This document shows, in pieces, positions 46,253 through 53,500 of a stretch of DNA of 64,000 nt (position 1 is its first letter; each line of letters opens with the position of its first letter). The notes under the pieces were generated by a model. The model saw only the letters and a list, made by a program, of their open reading frames with translations. It made no database searches and was not told the DNA's origin. The position numbers and the translations under genes are program-made. Source of the DNA: Escherichia phage EPFV3-03/2025; the sequence record PV435126.1; one strand, given 5' to 3'.

Positions 46253-47017
46253 TTGAAATTTATCTACAAAGAACACCACCACAAAGGTGTTGTGTGGAGT
46301 CTATTTGATGGGTCTGGTGGTGCAGTCATTGACTGGGCAAAAGCTGGGTATCTGTGCCTGTGCTTTAATGCAGAAGGTGCTGACCATGGTAGCTATGCAG
46401 AGGTGATAACCGATCATCCCAACATTCACTACGTGGATTATTGGATTGACCCGTGGTTCCCTCAAGAAACTTTTTGCATGTACCCAGCTCCAGACTTTAT
46501 TCTTGCATTTCCTCCGTGCACGCATTTAGCAGTATCAGGTGCTGCACATTTTAAGAAAAAGCTGGCTAAGGACCCCCTGATCCAAATTAATGCTGTAAAA
46601 GATGCTCGGGTTGCGGAAGAGCTGGGAGAGATCTACGATTGCCCGTGGCATGTAGAGAATCCTGTGGGTGTTATGTCCACACTGTGGCGCAAACCTGATT
46701 ACCGTTTTCACCCTTCGGATTATGGCGGGTATTTACCGGAAGATGATGTAAACCCATGGTTTCCTGAATTTATAGCTCCACGTGATGCCTATCCAAAAAT
46801 AACTTGCGGATGGATAGGTAACGGATTTATAATCCCGGCCACAAAACCTGTCCCGCAGATAGTGGATGCGGTTAGTGGTTATTCTATGCAACACGCTAAG
46901 CTAGGTGGAAAGAGTGCAAGGACGAAGATGATTCGAAGCCTTACACCACGTGGCTGGGCTAAAGCTGTATTCTTAGCAAACGAGCCTGCAGTAAGGAGCA
47001 GAATTAATGGGCAGTAA
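46253..47017 (+). CDS. compact DNA (cytosine-5) methyltransferase-like protein
   Basis: Track ORF 46223-47017 (GTG inside the terminator); more likely TTG near 46253 after GGAGA. Motif I-like LFDGSGG, motif IV-like FPPCTH (PC), motif VI-like ENPVG. Confidence 0.5.
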   Translation: MKFIYKEHHHKGVVWSLFDGSGGAVIDWAKAGYLCLCFNAEGADHGSYAEVITDHPNIHYVDYWIDPWFPQETFCMYPAPDFILAFPPCTHLAVSGAAHFKKKLAKDPLIQINAVKDARVAEELGEIYDCPWHVENPVGVMSTLWRKPDYRFHPSDYGGYLPEDDVNPWFPEFIAPRDAYPKITCGWIGNGFIIPATKPVPQIVDAVSGYSMQHAKLGGKSARTKMIRSLTPRGWAKAVFLANEPAVRSRINGQ

Positions 47018-49085
47018 ATTCATGGCATCTGCATACAACCGTTTCGGTGAGCCAAACCCGAAAGCAACCAAATATAAAAGTGGGGGGAGTGTGAAACGAG
47101 ACTATCGTGATGAAAAAGAGGTCGAAACTGTAGAGACTGTTTTAGAAAATACTAAAATTGTCCCTGTTCCACAACAAAATATCGGACTGATGGCTGCACA
47201 ATACTTCGGTGTGCGATCAGCATTGTCTCAAGAAGATGGGGTAACGGTCACTGCAACATATTTCCCATATTACGACCGCTACGGTAATCTATCTGGCTTT
47301 AAAAAGCGCGACTGGACAATCCCTAAAGAGCAAAGGGGCCATTTCTCAGTTGTTGGCATAGTAAAGGCCAACTCTCAGATGTTTGGTCAAAAGCTGTGTG
47401 CATCCTCCAACAACCGTAAACAGATTAACGTTTGCGAGGGGGAGGGTGATGTTATTGCAGCATGGCAAGCTGCATATCAGATACAAGTGAAAGGTATTCT
47501 CACCAATGCTAAAGCCCCAGCGAAGGTGAAGCAGTGGGCTAAAGAAGTTCAAGATGGGATTGATGCAGTTATCGACGGCGGGGATCTGGCAGGAAAACCC
47601 TGCCTGCCTTTTGTTGGAATTAACTGCGGGTGTGCAAACGCCGTAGATACTTTTGCTAACAATGAGAAATTTATCCGTAGCTACGGAACAGTGGTCCTTG
47701 CAATGGACAACGATGCAGCTAACGAGGTAGAGAAGCAAAAACACGTTATCAAAGGTGTTGAGGCCACACATAATATCGCAGCATTTTTGATGGCTGATAA
47801 CGTTTACCACGTGGAATACCCTGGTGAAGTAAACGATCCTGATGGTGTAAAAGACATTCGTGACATGCTGAAGGCTAAAAAGCTGGAAGATATTGTCAAC
47901 ATGTTCCGTCACCCAGTCAAATATGTGCCTGATGCTGTATCTGATTTAGAAGACTTCTCCATTGAGTCTCTTCGTAAGAAGACTTCCAATGGCGTAGATA
48001 TCAGTGCGGAGTTCCCTAAATTGCAGAAGATGCTGAAAGGGCTCCACAAAGGCACCTTGATGATGCTGACAGGCCCATCTGGCGGTGGTAAAACAACTGT
48101 AGCCAAGAAGCTGGAACACTGTATTGCAAGATACTTGATGGATCCAACATGCCCTAAAGCTGATGACTATGAAGAGGATGATCGCCTGTGCCTGATTCAC
48201 CTTGAAGAGGATCCTGAGGAAGCAATCAACTCTCTATACGCCAACCAGCTGGGATTTGATGTTAAAGAGTTTGTTGAAGACCCCAGTCAGTTCCTTACCG
48301 ACCAGGAGCACGCTGAGATCCATCAATCTTGGGCCAAGGCCGGAAAAATTAAAGTGTTCAAGCATTTCGGCTCCATCCCTGTGGATGAGCTGATCACTAA
48401 GCTTAAACAAATGGTGTGTCTGTATCACTGCCGTTACATTGTGCTGGATCACCTGTCCATGGTGATTTCAGGGCTTAATGTTAAGGATGAGCGCAAAGAA
48501 CTTGACATGGCTATGACTCAACTAGCTGCGTTCTGTAAGCAGTTTAATGTGTTTATCTTGGTTATTGCTCACCTGAAGCGCACAGAGATTATACCTCCTA
48601 AGGATAAGGATGGGAATCCGTTGCCTTTCTGGTATCCTGTACGAAAAGAGAACCTTCGTGGTAGTGCCGGATTGGAGCAACTCAGCTGGGTAGTTGTTGG
48701 GGTAGAGGCAGAAGAGATGGTGGATCGTTCTCGTGGGCGTGTCCGACTAGTAGGTCTTAAAAACCGCCCAGCAAAAACGTTAGGTATTGCGGACACTTTG
48801 GTTATGGATCCTCACACAGGCAAGTTCCACGATGCCAGCAATTGGTATTGGGATAAAGAAATGCAGATGTTTACAGACGGAGAAGGTGGGGAGGTTGTTT
48901 GGAGACCTCAGGCTATGTTTGAGGATCAGGATCATGCAGTTGTGGAAACACCCATGGGTAAGGTTGTGGCTGATAAGGTTGTAACTCCTACTGTTACCCC
49001 AGTTGACACGCAGGAAGATCCTCAGTATGATGATCCGTCCTCTAACCACGTCCCCGGTTTTGAAGACGACGAAACACCTTTTTAA
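47007..49085 (+). CDS. DNA primase/helicase (T7 gp4-like: TOPRIM + DnaB-type helicase)
   Basis: 692 aa; TOPRIM-like CEGEGDVIAAW and VVLAMDNDAAN; helicase Walker A LTGPSGGGKTT and Walker B IVLDHLS. Confidence 0.65.
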   Translation: MGSKFMASAYNRFGEPNPKATKYKSGGSVKRDYRDEKEVETVETVLENTKIVPVPQQNIGLMAAQYFGVRSALSQEDGVTVTATYFPYYDRYGNLSGFKKRDWTIPKEQRGHFSVVGIVKANSQMFGQKLCASSNNRKQINVCEGEGDVIAAWQAAYQIQVKGILTNAKAPAKVKQWAKEVQDGIDAVIDGGDLAGKPCLPFVGINCGCANAVDTFANNEKFIRSYGTVVLAMDNDAANEVEKQKHVIKGVEATHNIAAFLMADNVYHVEYPGEVNDPDGVKDIRDMLKAKKLEDIVNMFRHPVKYVPDAVSDLEDFSIESLRKKTSNGVDISAEFPKLQKMLKGLHKGTLMMLTGPSGGGKTTVAKKLEHCIARYLMDPTCPKADDYEEDDRLCLIHLEEDPEEAINSLYANQLGFDVKEFVEDPSQFLTDQEHAEIHQSWAKAGKIKVFKHFGSIPVDELITKLKQMVCLYHCRYIVLDHLSMVISGLNVKDERKELDMAMTQLAAFCKQFNVFILVIAHLKRTEIIPPKDKDGNPLPFWYPVRKENLRGSAGLEQLSWVVVGVEAEEMVDRSRGRVRLVGLKNRPAKTLGIADTLVMDPHTGKFHDASNWYWDKEMQMFTDGEGGEVVWRPQAMFEDQDHAVVETPMGKVVADKVVTPTVTPVDTQEDPQYDDPSSNHVPGFEDDETPF

Positions 49086-49143
49086 TGTTTAACCAAGAGT
49101 GGGAGGGGTAGTACAACCGCCTCCCCTTTAAGGAGAACTGTAT

Positions 49144-52100
49144 ATGAGCATGTGGTCGTTCGATTTTGAGGCCTCTGGCTTGCTGGAAGACCCAGATCTT
49201 TATTATCACTGCGGTTTGTTTAAAGAGCTGAATAAGAACCGTTTTATGCTGTTCCTCCCCCTAAATGACCGCACACACTACTCTGAAGAGGATGTGGAGA
49301 AAGCTAAGAACTTCATTCTGGCAAAAAAGACCCTTTATACAGATTTTGAGGCTCGCATAGCAGATTTTTCAGAGTTGGAAGGCTGGCTTACAGGTAATTC
49401 AGATTGGTCACCTACGGCTTTGAACTGTCATAACTGCTACAGCTACGACTTTATGCTGATGGAAAGATTATCCGGTATTCATTTTGATATGTTCCGTGAT
49501 CCTAAATGCATGGGAACTATCAACGACCACCAGGTTAATCTGTTTGATACGTTAGCGATGAGTCGAATCTTGTGGCCTGACCGCCCTTTGCCAAAAGGTT
49601 GTCCGGACGCAGTATTCAATCCAGTTACCAAGAAAATGCAGCCTGTTGGGCCTCATGGCCTTATGGCATGGGGCTATGCCCTTGGTAACCAGAAAGTTCA
49701 AATCGATGACTGGCGTGAGCTTCCGCTGTGGAAGTATGTGGATCGTGTGTTCGAGGACGTTATCATTCAGGAGTTGCTCTGGAAGGAGTTGGTAGCTGAA
49801 TCAAAAGGTGTATTCTACGGCAAATCTGACATGCAGAACTTTATGTATGACCCTGCCAAAGAGAAGCCTAAAGGATTCAAGAAGATTACCTGGAAGAATG
49901 CATTACGCCGAGGCATGCTGCAGCATTTCCTGATGGAGCTGCAGGCTCGACAGGGTGTGTATTTCGACATAGATGGGGCTATTGCTTTACGTGACCGCTG
50001 CGATGCGTGGATGAAAGAGATCGCTGATCGTGTTGAACCACAACTTCCTTTAAAAGAGTTATCAATGTCTCAGCGGCCTAAGTTCCCTGAAAAGCCGTTT
50101 AACCAGGATGGGACAATCTCTAATAACGGTTGGAAATGGTTAAAAGACAAGCTTGGCTATCCTGTGGATATGGGTGCTTTAGAATTCAAAGCTCCGCCTA
50201 AGCGAGCCTTTACCTCCACAGGAGATGTCAGCAAAATGGGGATAAAATGGTGTGAAGAGATGGGCTGCAAAGACCCCGATAAGATGGCTGATTTCTTAAG
50301 GGGGTATATTAAAGGAACCTCTACACCGCACCCTTTACCTAAAGAACTAATGGATCAGGCAATAAGTGATCTGCAGCAGAAGCGGATGCCTGACTGCAAG
50401 ATACCTATGAAGATCAGCAACCAGGACGACATCAAGCGATACCTGATCAGTGCTGGTTGGCTCCCAACAATGTGGAGAACTAAGGATGTAACTAAAGACA
50501 GCAAGAAGAAAGCTTTACCTGATGCAGATGTTGATGCACGAGTATATGCATATATGGACGAGCTTTTGGAGTCAGAGTATTGTGACCTGATTATCAACTT
50601 CTGGAACAAAACTGATGCCAAGTTCCAGACAACCGTGCACAAGTTCCGAAGCTTCCCTAACTCAGAAAGGATTAAAAAGGAAGTGTTTGGGAAGATACGT
50701 AGAAAAGCCAGAGCGCTTATTACTTCTCCGCAACTGAAAGATACGTTTGGACACCTGTGCCCGAATCTTGAAAAATTGAACGGGGAGATGGCTAAAGATA
50801 TCGTTTTGTGGTTATCATTGCGAAACCGCAGATCGGTCCTTGATCCAATCAAGGAGGATAAGGTTGATACTGGTCTTCTTAATCATCCACGTTTGAAGAT
50901 TGACCATAAGCTTCCTGCTAAAAGTTCTGGATTAACAAACACTTCAAGACAGAAACACAGCATTTGTGCAAACATGCCTAAACCATCTCCTAAAGTGGTT
51001 ATGGGTAAAGAGATGCGTAGTCTGTGGGGTGTTCCTCCAGGATACTTTGAGATCGGTATTGACGGGTCTAACTTAGAGCAGCTTATTGGGGCTTGGGGTG
51101 CCTTTGAGTTTGACAACGGCCTGTATTATGATGTTGTAAGTAACGGCGATGCACACTGTTATTCAGGAGATACACAAATTCTCACGGAGAAAGGGTGGGT
51201 GAGGTTTGAAGATCTTGATCCGGGAACACAAGTGTTCCAGTACGATCACAACACCTCGTCGATGAACCTTGTTACTCCATTAAATTACGTTAAGCGTAGT
51301 TATTGTGGGGATATGTATCATTTCCACAACAGCAGTGTGGATTTTATGGTTACAGATCAACACAGGATGCTGACCGTGGATCACAGAAGCAATAAATTGT
51401 TTGAAGATTTGGCAAAAGACCTGAAAGCAGGTAAAGGGTCTAATTCAGGAAGAAGGTTTATCCATGCGGCAGAGTTTTATGGGAATACAACCTTATCTCC
51501 TGCCCAGGTTAATTTGCTTATTGCTATTCACGATGATGGGTACTTGCATACAAATAAGGACGGCAGCATCGTGTGCAGGATTCAGGCCGGGAAGGGCAGA
51601 AAAGTTGCAACGCTTTTAGATACTTTTTCTGCTCTAAGCCTTAGTTATGTAGAGCAGAGCGGGAAAACCACAAAAGGAGGCTTACTGGCGAGAAGGTTCC
51701 AATTCCACGTTCCGTCCTGGGTATTTGAGTTTTTGGACAGCAATAAGGATTTCACCTACAACCTGATGGACCTTGATAAAGAATCTAAAAACCTGTTTAT
51801 AGCTTCTTTATCTAACTGGGACGGGTGGGTATCTCCCGAAGGTGGAAAAGTTGCCTACTACTCTCAGGCCGAGTGCAGGAAGAAATCTGTAGAGGTTGTG
51901 TCTGCGCTGGCTACTCAGTGTGGTTTACGGAATAATACGGTGGCGATTCACAAAAAAGGTCGTTCCGTACAGCACAGAATCACGATTGGTAGCAAACAGA
52001 GAGCAGGGTTGCTGACACTATCTAAAGAGCCTGTCGGGGTGAGCGGTTCTTTGGTTTATTGCGTTACCGTCCCTTCTGGAGCAATCATTGTGAGAAGGAA

Positions 52101-52536
52101 TGGTAAAGTGGCAGTGTGCGGTAACTGTAATAACGCCAAAGCTTACTCTTCTGTAGCAGGCAAGGAGATTTCCCGTAACGATGGTAAGCCTGTCACGTAC
52201 GGTGTTATGTACGGGGCACAAAAAGATAAAGTTGCAGACATGCTGGATATCTCTCCAGAGTTGGGGCAAAGGGTAATCGATGCGCTTTGGGATGCCAACC
52301 CAGGTCTTAAGGGGCGTAAAGAGGATCTGGAGAAATTCTGGGAAGCAACAGGTAAGAAATTTATCTACTCTTTTGACGGTCATGCCATCTGGACCCGATC
52401 TAAACACTCTTTACTTAATGCATACCAACAGAATGGTGGTGCATCGTTGTGTGACTTAGTTGGGATACTCATGCACCACCAAATGGTGAAGCGTGGGTGG
52501 TACGATGAAGGTGTCCGTCGTATTATTTATTACCAT
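49144..52536 (+). CDS. family A (T7-like) DNA polymerase, exon 1, containing an in-frame intein
   Basis: ExoI-like FDFEASGL and YHCGLF at the N-terminus; motif A-like GIDGSNLEQLIGAW; motif B-like RNDGKPVTYGVMYGAQ. The track ORF stops at HK* exactly where motif C (HDE) is expected; reading resumes in exon 2. Confidence 0.8.
51157..52125 (+). mobile_element. intein with LAGLIDADG-type homing endonuclease domain, inserted in the DNA polymerase
   Basis: 323 codons between polymerase motifs A and B. Begins CYSGDTQILTEKGW (intein block A), block B-like VTDQH, LAGLIDADG-like LLIAIHDDGY and FIASLSNWDGW, ends ...VAVCGN followed by Cys (+1). Flanking exteins (NGDAH / CNNAKAY...) align with the T7 polymerase GDIH-TKNQ region. 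Confidence 0.75.
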
Positions 52537-52812
52537 AAATAACATTGTGGCTTCATAGAGTAATCTATGTCGAATAACCTCTTTAACTGCGGGAAGCCTA
52601 AACCTTATGGCAAGGTAATCCGCAACGAAGCGCTCAAAAGAGCGAACGCTCAGAGGCCATTCCGAAAGGAAGTAGACCAGCAAGTGCGGTCGAAATGGGA
52701 GGATTCCTGTGGTTGCTTATCATAGGAATATGAGATGGTCCGATCCTACGTGAAAACGTATGGCTATGCACGTAATGGTGCGGGGTAGCTTAACGACCTA
52801 CCTGAACTATTG
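52537..52812 (+). ncRNA. group I self-splicing intron (no ORF) in the DNA polymerase gene
   Basis: 276 nt between exon 1 (ends ...YYH, last nt U) and exon 2 (DEYQ...). P-like AACUGCGGGAAG (~52585), Q-like AAUCCGCAAC (~52617), R-like GUAGACCAGCAAG (~52670), S-like GAGAUGGUCCGA (~52731). Possible P1 pairing of exon CCAU with intron GUGG; intron ends in G. Confidence 0.7.
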
Positions 52813-53166
52813 GATGAGTACCAACTTCAAGTCCCTGACACGCCTAAGTATAAGACTGTGTACACCTTCGACACAATTGAAGAACTGGAAGCATTTAAGG
52901 CAGAACAGGAGGCCAAACTTCATGTGTTTGACGGTCATAAGTACAAAAAGGCACGCAAGGATGAGAACGGAAACGAAGTGGTTGACAGAGACGGAAACAC
53001 GGTGTACGATCCTATTCTGAACGATGACGGAAAGCTTGAACTTATCTGGAGCCCTGTGGGTGAAATGGTGGTGCATTGCTTCTGGCAAGCTTCTAAAATG
53101 ATGGGCGTCCCGTTCCAGATCACAGGTGAATACCTGTGCGGTCGTAATTGGGGTGATTGTCACTAA
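52813..53166 (+). CDS. family A DNA polymerase, exon 2 (motif C to C-terminus)
   Basis: In the track as ORF 52810-53166 with an artefactual TTG start. Encodes DEYQLQV... (completing HDE) and ends ...GRNWGDCH, paralleling the T7 polymerase C-terminus ...GPNWAICH. Confidence 0.75.
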   Translation, partial: DEYQLQVPDTPKYKTVYTFDTIEELEAFKAEQEAKLHVFDGHKYKKARKDENGNEVVDRDGNTVYDPILNDDGKLELIWSPVGEMVVHCFWQASKMMGVPFQITGEYLCGRNWGDCH

Positions 53167-53215
53167 TGTAAACTATCAACACATGGAAGTGTTGTTGAGC
53201 AAAGAGGAGACTTTT

Positions 53216-53500
53216 ATGGTAGTAGAACCGACAAAAACATTTACCTCCATGACTATTCCTGTTATTATGCAGGTAGAGTGCGTTCAGGTGTCCCAAGTGT
53301 GGCCAGGTACTAAAATTCCAACAGGGCCTGATTTCTTCCAGGTTGGAAAGGTGTACAATGTATGGAAGGCACCGGATTGTTACCCTTTCATTAAAGATGA
53401 CCGTGGAATGTTATGGTATCTGGGAAATGATTTGACACTACATCTTGGAAATGCTATTATTGCAGTGTTCCGGCTCAACAAGAAGGGGGCAGATCAATGA
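53216..53500 (+). CDS. small protein, paralog family member 1
   Basis: Track ORF 53126-53500; likely start ATG 53216 after AAAGAGGAGA. Shares the pattern F..G..Y.V....D..G..W with the next two ORFs. Confidence 0.45.
   Translation: MVVEPTKTFTSMTIPVIMQVECVQVSQVWPGTKIPTGPDFFQVGKVYNVWKAPDCYPFIKDDRGMLWYLGNDLTLHLGNAIIAVFRLNKKGADQ

Follow-up and report, generated by a model that had tools for sequence, protein, structure and literature searches.

The DNA polymerase gene of Escherichia phage EPFV3-03/2025 (PV435126.1) is interrupted twice, once by an in-frame intein and once by a group I intron. We analyzed a stretch of 64,000 nucleotides (nt) from this genome, hereafter the window, in which the gene occupies positions 49144-53166. 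Megablast identified the window as a Vequintavirus phage, an rV5-like myovirus of E. coli, with phage YP-6 as the top match to the polymerase region (97.4% over all 4023 nt). The explanation that we hold as a whole with considerable confidence is that the gene is the T7-gp5-like replicative DNA polymerase of the phage, broken by two independent selfish elements. Both elements are real and were correctly read, both are very probably functional, and both would have to go before an active polymerase exists. The parts of the gene are given below, with lengths of products in amino acids (aa).

49144..52542, + strand: open reading frame (ORF) of 1132 aa from the ORF list, ending ...RRIIYYHK*
49144..51156, + strand: exon 1, N-extein part, aa 1-671, from the 3'-5' exonuclease region through motif A, ending ...SNGDAH
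51157..52125, + strand: intein of 323 codons, residues 672-994, Cys1...Gly322-Asn323; absent from rV5 and FV3
52126..52536, + strand: remainder of exon 1 (C-extein), aa 995-1131, from motif B to the His of motif C, by alignment to T7
52537..52812, + strand: group I intron of 276 nt without a homing-endonuclease ORF, identified by Rfam RF00028, covariation, and a colinear excision product
52810..53166, + strand: ORF from the ORF list with a TTG start, reading M-DEYQLQV...GRNWGDCH
52813..53166, + strand: exon 2, 117 codons and a stop, DEYQLQV...GRNWGDCH*, supplying Asp-Glu of motif C and the C-terminus

The polymerase gene and its group I intron

A first-pass annotation of this DNA had proposed that the first frame stops at ...IIYYHK* just where motif C belongs, and that the downstream frame supplies motif C and a T7-like C-terminus. 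Both proposals held. The stop ends at 52542, and taking out residues 672-994 and nt 52537-52812 gives a conceptual mature polymerase of 925 aa. Residues 633-813 of this product align with T7 gp5 468-658 as one stretch over motifs A, B, and C (61 bits, E 7e-16), whereas the interrupted ORF matches T7 gp5 in pieces with 36.8 bits. Motif A reads DGSNLE (DASGLE in T7) and the rebuilt motif C reads YYHDEYQL (WVHDEIQV in T7). The intein lies between motifs A and B, and the intron between the His and Asp codons of HDE. Within the N-extein part, which is colinear with rV5 and FV3, the alignment pairs residues 633-673 with T7 gp5 468-508. Natural alleles from other phages are exactly colinear with the predicted splice products, those of NHEP1, Murica, JeffSchatz, and ECP26 lacking the intron and those of rV5 and FV3 lacking the intein.

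The 276-nt gap, earlier read as a group I intron, matches Rfam RF00028 at 52527-52762 over model positions 1-253 of 253 (64.7 bits, gathering score 50, E 2.8e-15). No other Rfam family was found in the 64-kb window. We aligned the window intron with four divergent relatives, from JEP1, Avunavirus phage 18-1-2, and Vibrio phages K412 and 10AMN, all of which also pass the Rfam cut-off (71-91 bits). The consensus structure drawn from these five sequences contains 58 pairs, with the P7 pseudoknot added by hand. Standard pairs filled 97.9% of cells, compared to 33-43% when partners were slid by 1-3 columns, and compensatory changes occurred in 24 of the 58 pairs, compared to 1-6 in the slid controls. 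None of 500 shuffles matched the covariation score of the alignment. The structural signal is thus far beyond chance, and the covariation, supportive rather than exhaustive with five sequences, agrees with Rfam. The helices were assigned as follows.

52533..52550, + strand: P1, formed by exon CCAU and intron AA with the internal guide UUGUGG; 100% paired in the 5 sequences
52578..52740, + strand: catalytic core P3-P8 as a whole
52578-83/52697-702, + strand: P3, with compensatory changes
52588-98/52614-24, + strand: P4-P5, with compensatory changes
52631-35/52640-44, + strand: P6, with compensatory changes
52655-59/52736-40, + strand: P7, pseudoknot, 100% paired with a C-G to U-A swap
52660-71, + strand: P7.1, UUCC-GAAA-GGAA, by inspection only
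52675-81/52686-91, + strand: P7.2, with two compensatory pairs
52703-09/52723-29, + strand: P8, with compensatory changes
52746..52812, + strand: P9 (52746-51/52756-62), 3' extension, and terminal G52812

All five sequences keep U52536·G52547, the wobble pair at the 5' splice site. Read from the sequence, exon-2 GAUG (52813-16) can pair with CAUU (52543-46) to form a P10 of 4 bp. P7.1, assigned by inspection, and P7.2, assigned by covariation, place the intron in subgroup IA. As judged from this structure, the subgroup-IA-type ribozyme would use guanosine to cut after U52536 and would then join ...UAC CAU to GAU GAG..., rebuilding the His-Asp-Glu of motif C. An in-frame stop stands at the second intron codon (AAA TAA), where translation of unspliced RNA would end and leave a dead truncated protein.

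Three independent lines fix the intron boundaries: the reading frame, the rules of the ribozyme, and natural intron-less alleles. Cutting after CAT (ending at 52536) and before GAT (52813) joins ...IIYYH to DEYQLQV... and restores HDE, with the predicted junction DNA ...TATTACCAT|GATGAGTAC.... The spliced window product, of 1248 aa with the intein still in place, is identical at 1236 residues to the continuous polymerase coding sequence (CDS) of NHEP1, also 1248 aa, without gaps. The other three intron-less alleles are likewise uninterrupted at the junction, and two distant PolA proteins from a metagenomic library, P0007 and P0009, read ...HDEYQ... unbroken. We also considered a 52-aa ORF within the intron (52567..52725), the counterpart of which is an annotated protein in rV5 (gp222). 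It was taken as spurious because it overlaps ribozyme helices P2-P8.

The intron is not special to this phage, which refines the earlier account, and is polymorphic across the Vequintavirinae. The spliced junction, used as a query, matched 116 Vequintavirus records, 85 with the exon halves in one place and 31 with the halves split by a large insert. A spread sample of 60 of these records gave the following intron states.

No intron: 28 of 60
276-nt form: 13 of 60
328-nt form: 2 of 60
HNH-bearing form (~842 nt): 16 of 60
Partial match, contig ending in exon 2, no intron at the junction: 1 of 60

About half of the related phages, then, carry no intron. In the FV3-type intron the HNH ORF is located in the P6 loop. 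The 328-nt form (JEP1, HMD-6, and SYGMH1) resembles an FV3-type intron with the ORF cleanly gone from P6, sharing its P5 and P7.1 expansions, and is unlike the compact 276-nt form. Loss of the ORF thus seems to have occurred separately from compaction. The window intron is identical to that of rV5 at 276 of 276 positions, whereas the flanking exons differ at 4-5% of positions. At the exon rate, ~12 intron differences would be expected and 0 were seen; on the upstream and downstream sides, the closest exon mismatches are 22 nt and 21 nt from the intron, respectively.

Two kinds of intron-less allele were observed. Murica and JeffSchatz begin exon 2 with the same sequence as intron-bearing phages, GATGAGTACCAACTT (window 52813-52827). 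NHEP1 and ECP26 begin it with GACGAATATCAGCTT, which has 4 synonymous changes in 12 nt, one of them weakening P10. The former could be intron-loss alleles, and the latter never-invaded or HNH-resistant ones. Separately, 16 records labeled 'Campylobacter phage' (MG065635-MG065690, host C. jejuni) are ~94% identical to this polymerase region, and many of them have a 276-nt intron identical to that of the window. The host given for these records seems questionable.

Introns related to that of the window were found at YYH|DE in Seunavirus SSE121, Certrevirus phiTE and CB7, and Vibrio phages. In E. coli Pol I, motif C is His881-Asp882-Glu883, the position of site 881. Self-splicing IA2 introns of the T7-like phages ΦI and W31 sit at polymerase site 881 in E. 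coli numbering (Bonocora & Shub 2004, as summarized in PMC3428280). By that published description, rather than by sequence, they resemble the window intron in lying at motif C of a T7-gp5-type polymerase and in having P7.1/P7.2. The same summary gives them an ORF in P6, as in the FV3-type sister intron, whereas the window copy has none; their hosts are podoviruses. The CB7 intron shares with that of the window the phage subfamily, the insertion site, an identical P1, and 212 of 258 aligned core positions (82%), and was spliced in infected cells as determined by reverse transcription PCR (RT-PCR) and Sanger sequencing (PMC7344957). The CB7 and phiTE introns, unlike that of the window, contain an HNH endonuclease ORF (687 nt in CB7), and a further intron lies upstream in those genes. 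By comparison, the window copy is compact, at 276 nt and without an ORF. No intein is reported in the CB7 polymerase.

The intein and its endonuclease region

The first-pass annotation had described a 323-codon in-frame insert between motifs A and B with intein hallmarks. This was borne out, as residues 672-994 contain intein blocks A, B, F, and G. The insert begins CYSGDTQILT and ends VAVCGN, followed by C; it thus closes with Gly-Asn and not with His-Asn, as is usual in its family, which refines the earlier description. The intein-less alleles of rV5 and FV3 read ...SNGDAH|QNNAEAYTKVAGRE..., with QNNAEAY after the junction and Gln at +1, and their DNA at the insertion point is ...GGAGACGCACAC|CAAAACAATGCTGAGGCATATAC.... 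The corresponding window sequence is ...SNGDAH|C-[321 aa]-N|CNNAKAYSSVAGKE.... In rV5 and FV3, nothing separates SNGDAH from QNNAEAY. The LAGLIDADG-like motifs also noted at first sight proved to be two in number. Motifs are given below with their conservation in the intein family, counted in an alignment of 254 domains taken from the 150 best-matching proteins.

51349..51369, + strand: block B, VTDQHRM, with Thr66, His69, Arg70, and Met71 (Thr in 192/209 domains, His in 208/210)
51514..51540, + strand: first LAGLIDADG-type motif, LLIAIHDDG, with Asp127-Gly128 (Asp in 148/152 domains)
51793..51825, + strand: second LAGLIDADG-type motif, LFIASLSNWDG, with Trp221-Asp222-Gly223 (Asp in 156/163 domains)
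52054..52080, + strand: block F, VYCVTVPSG, with Cys302 at F:4 (Cys in 193/196 domains)
52108..52128, + strand: block G and the C-terminal junction, VAVCGN / Cys+1 (Gly in 175/178 domains, Asn in 163/163)

Cys1 was present in 203 of 203 family domains, and the +1 residue was Cys, Ser, or Thr in 118 of 118. A tblastn search with the insert matched 275 phage records, and in 240 the match extends over at least 80% of the insert. The same module occurs there in frame in ribonucleotide reductase (RNR) subunits, NAMPT, PhoH, thymidylate synthase, and many mycobacteriophage proteins. When eight inserts were aligned together with 10 flanking residues, the likeness started exactly at Cys1 and stopped at Gly-Asn, and the flanks were unrelated. 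An exhaustive HMMER search found 7418 representative proteins at E<=1e-3. Given these relatives, the empty result of a word-indexed protein search with the intein alone reflects a limit of the index. A PDB search with the 42-aa C-terminal splicing region gave chance matches only.

The intein of mycobacteriophage Bethlehem gp51, a recombination directionality factor (RDF), aligned end to end by BLASTP (E 1e-11). It shares with the window intein Cys1, a T-x-x-H-R block B, the block-F Cys, the Gly-Asn end, a central endonuclease region, and a length of ~320 aa. The two are only 21% identical, and the Bethlehem copy differs in its host protein (a metallophosphoesterase/RDF of an actinobacteriophage) and in having Ser rather than Cys at +1. 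It splices completely, changing its penultimate Gly to His slows splicing, and its endonuclease is toxic and active (Kelley et al. 2016, PMC5050341). Relatives of the window intein with a penultimate Gly splice well and are impaired by a Gly-to-His change (PMC5050341; PMC7891396).

Conserved catalytic residues and these characterized relatives suggest the course of protein splicing. A 1248-aa precursor would excise the 323-aa intein, with Cys1, or possibly block-F Cys302, forming the first thioester. Cys+1 would then take the N-extein and Asn323 would cyclize, releasing a 925-aa polymerase with the scar ...GDAH-CNNAK....

The central endonuclease region spans approximately intein residues 100-285, with its two motifs about 100 residues apart. 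Asp127 and Asp222 are invariant in two family alignments, and Trp221-Asp222 in one. The first motif aligns with the LAGLIDADG motif of PDB 2DCH. Pfam LAGLIDADG_3 was matched by 13 of 25 endonuclease regions from the family (best E 9.5e-7), and no other Pfam family was matched by more than one member. The window copy retains Asp127, Gly128, the Lys of KxRK, Trp221, and Asp222. Its assignment as an endonuclease follows from family membership and from these retained catalytic residues.

Within the 50,697 phage records searched, the intein DNA was found in only 6. Five copies are ~99% identical (Mangalyan, JEP1, NHEP1, 241Ecol014PP, and YP-6), and that of VB-EcoM-WM is 88% identical. P0007 and P0009 carry a 36-39% identical intein at the same GDxH| site. 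A more distant family member, 26% identical, was observed in an RNR-like 'hint domain protein' of Vibrio phage 1.161.O (MG592529; 5473-10404). The adjacent RNR small-subunit gene of that phage is split by an intervening ORF, and nearby DNA matches the 3' part of the window intron, so that an intein and an intron again occur together at this locus. We asked whether these elements lie in the polymerase of phage 1.161.O; they do not, as the intein is in the RNR-like protein and the intron relative splits the RNR small subunit.

Competing readings of the locus

Several results weigh against the reading of the gene as a family-A polymerase interrupted by a functional intein and a mobile intron. Pfam DNA_pol_A scored the interrupted ORF at 17.6 bits and the mature protein at 28.4, still under the cut-off of 34.3. 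The window intein alone likewise fell short of Pfam Hint_2 (23.5 bits, cut-off 28.4) and NCBIfam intein_Nterm (14.1, cut-off 24.5), and a single-sequence AlphaFold2 model was too poor (pLDDT 38.5) to show a HINT fold. The penultimate His of block G (G:6) is replaced by Gly322. The window endonuclease region itself matched no LAGLIDADG model, and the top PDB match of the family profile to a homing endonuclease, 2DCH, is marginal (E 0.025). Finally, the perfect conservation of the intron could in part reflect constraint instead of recent transfer.

The low polymerase score follows from the divergence of this polymerase clade, and the family-A assignment is supported by the match to T7 gp5 and by the GenBank annotations of orthologs. 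A penultimate His is common in inteins but not obligatory, and the family as a whole has Gly at this position. The intron sequence is not frozen by constraint, since the functional FV3 and JEP1 forms are 15% diverged. The best reading of the intron data is recent lateral spread with short co-conversion tracts.

How mobile the two elements are at present bears on the alternative that survives best. Intein copies are 99% identical between phages that share ~95% identity in the polymerase region. Immediately downstream of it, in the C-extein tract (52126-52170), ~20 of 45 nt differ from intein-less alleles (the first 27 nt mismatch rV5 at 15 positions), with a change of Gln to Cys at +1 and four more amino acid changes. 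On the N-extein side, only 2 of the last 12 nt differ. The diverged tract is common to the four intein-bearing phages examined (the window phage, Mangalyan, NHEP1, and VB-EcoM-WM). It fits acquisition from a diverged donor with co-conversion, and looks like either a one-sided co-conversion tract or C-extein adaptation. It would also remove the presumed endonuclease target from intein-bearing genomes.

On the co-conversion account, the freed intein endonuclease would probably cut intein-less alleles in mixed infections and copy itself in, with the shared C-extein tract as the co-converted flank. The ORF-less intron would most likely spread by ordinary recombination, or may serve as repair template when the HNH enzyme of a sister form cuts intron-less alleles. 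The first-pass annotation had pointed to this gene as a place to study collateral mobility of the two elements. That idea found little support. Among phages with the intein, all intron states occur: none (NHEP1), 276 nt (the window phage, YP-6, and 241Ecol014PP), 328 nt (JEP1), and HNH-bearing (Mangalyan and VB-EcoM-WM). The two elements therefore assort independently. Intein-intron linkage as a strong effect was rejected on this ground and on that of the exon mismatches within 21-22 nt of the intron at either end.

Alternatively, both elements may splice while neither is mobile now, the endonuclease being inactive and the intron a vertically inherited remnant. The missing endonuclease ORF of the intron, the HDDG of the window where the family has QADG, the lack of a LAGLIDADG model match for the window copy alone, and the rarity of the intein among phage records all speak for this. 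We consider this account possible but doubtful. All invariant and near-invariant endonuclease residues are kept, and an intein 99% and an intron 100% identical across phages with exons that differ by 4-5% are the reverse of what would be expected for old, decaying elements passed on vertically. Furthermore, closely related phages differ irregularly in intron and intein state.

Another alternative concerns the route of protein splicing. By default we read the intein as class 1, its block G being non-canonical, in line with the treatment of the Bethlehem relative, and the combination of near-invariant Cys1, block-F Cys, and Gly-Asn is the least ordinary point of the locus. Class 3 inteins are defined by the lack of a nucleophile at position 1. 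The window intein fails class 3 membership on this feature because Cys1 is present. Splicing might still be class-3-like, with an internal branched thioester on block-F Cys302 replacing that on Cys1, or with either route in use. The closest solved structure to the family profile is the AceL NrdHF intein (PDB 6ZGQ, E 1.3e-9). This is a proven class 3 intein with a penultimate Gly and an M-C-T triplet, in which the block-F Cys (branch-point Cys124) is the first nucleophile and an Arg after the block B His compensates for a missing His (PMC7891396).

Like AceL NrdHF, whose block B is S-x-x-H-R-M, the window intein has Arg-Met after the block B His, an F:4 Cys with a kink-forming Pro four residues on, a Gly-Asn end, and no His at F:13 or G:6. 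AceL NrdHF is naturally split, lacks an endonuclease, and starts with Ala, whereas the window intein is contiguous, contains an endonuclease region, and starts with Cys. The F:4 Cys is nearly as constant in the family as Cys1, and inteins of the WCT type with N-terminal Ser or Cys have been noted before, their mechanism left unresolved (Tori et al. 2010, PMC2807308). On the other side, the presence of Cys1 in every family domain scored argues that it is needed. The WCT positions of the window are Met71, Cys302, and Cys321, so that only the F:4 Cys matches; there is no Trp at B:12, and G:5 is Cys, not Thr. Family G:5 residues were Thr in 72 domains, Ser in 55, and Cys in 35. In addition, the related Bethlehem gp51 intein was treated as class 1 by Kelley et al. 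(PMC5050341). This very large and mostly phage-borne family thus joins a class 1-treated member to a proven class 3 one. That it splices through a block-F thioester, or by either route, despite Cys1, and so bridges class 1 and class 3, seems to us unlikely; the class 1 route remains our preferred reading.

The remaining alternatives dispense with splicing altogether. The intron could stay in place, with the polymerase assembling from separate exon 1 and exon 2 polypeptides. GenBank annotates the two ORFs as separate CDSs, and some phage genes split by an endonuclease work without splicing, Aeh1 NrdA being cited as a case of function without splicing in PMC7344957. For this locus, we regard the arrangement as very improbable. 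It would put the break inside the catalytic HDE, between the codons for His and Asp, and the RNA between the exons has the full structure of a ribozyme, with covariation and proper pairings at the splice sites; its CB7 homolog is spliced in vivo (PMC7344957). By inspection, exon 2 lacks an in-frame ATG, and no Shine-Dalgarno-like sequence lies immediately before it; its only in-frame candidate start is the TTG at 52810. Together with the stop in the intron, this makes independent translation of exon 2 unlikely. That residues 672-994 are instead a permanent accessory domain of the polymerase is scarcely credible: single-sequence domain-model scores do lie under cut-offs, but the same module, bounded by Cys1 and by Asn with Cys, Ser, or Thr, occurs in many unrelated proteins, has relatives proven to splice, breaks a fingers region between motifs A and B that is contiguous in T7 gp5, and is missing from most sister phages.

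Annotation of the gene and use of its alleles

GenBank records annotate this region variously as separate 'DNA polymerase' CDSs, as small hypothetical ORFs within the ribozyme, or as 'hypothetical protein'. The rV5 genome paper gives the polymerase as 775 aa and mentions introns only in the terminase gene (PMC3606486). In the rV5 reference (NC_011041; 1501-4555), the 5' end of the polymerase is split into gp224 and gp223, its frame breaking near codon 6 relative to the window. The same reference places two hypothetical proteins, gp222 and gp221, within the ribozyme; the window ORF at 52567..52725 is the equivalent of gp222 and probably not a gene.

Around the polymerase, the window showed the following. 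The upstream neighbor is listed first, and the second entry falls in the end of its ORF.

47007..49085: gp4-like primase-helicase gene
49003-49031, + strand: sigma-70-like site TTGACA-17-TATGAT (11/12 matches), ~110 nt upstream of the polymerase start

The regional total of such sites equals shuffle expectation, as did all counts in a promoter and terminator scan of 48900-53400, which found no terminator-like site on the + strand within the intron. No tRNA genes were found in window 1-64000, the first half of which is a run of large same-strand ORFs (865, 1266, 1279, and 1282 aa).

Within the literature collection searched, we found no published description of an intein, or of an intein paired with an intron, in a Vequintavirus polymerase. 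Phage genes with both elements are known, among them CB7 NrdA (Table 3, PMC7344957). Like the window polymerase, that essential gene combines a LAGLIDADG-bearing intein with a group I intron and needs both RNA and protein splicing, although it encodes a ribonucleotide reductase and not a polymerase. The locus is a new, unannotated case of known kinds of element, not a new kind of system.

Phages of the rV5-like group serve widely in typing, in therapy, and as models, and the group is represented in the BASEL collection. Their replicase has been misannotated as two or three genes, and recognizing the intron and the intein corrects the gene model. Public genomes of close, culturable E. coli phages hold every combination of intein and intron states and amount to a natural experiment. 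This allele set is suited to measuring homing, the length of co-conversion tracts, and the competition of ORF-less with endonuclease-bearing introns at one site. It is equally suited to measuring any cost, in fitness or in regulation, of having to splice an essential enzyme twice. The unusual catalytic signature of the intein family adds a modest extra for mechanistic study. Should the block-F or dual route prove true, the family would offer a class 1/class 3 bridge intein in an easily manipulated E. coli phage.

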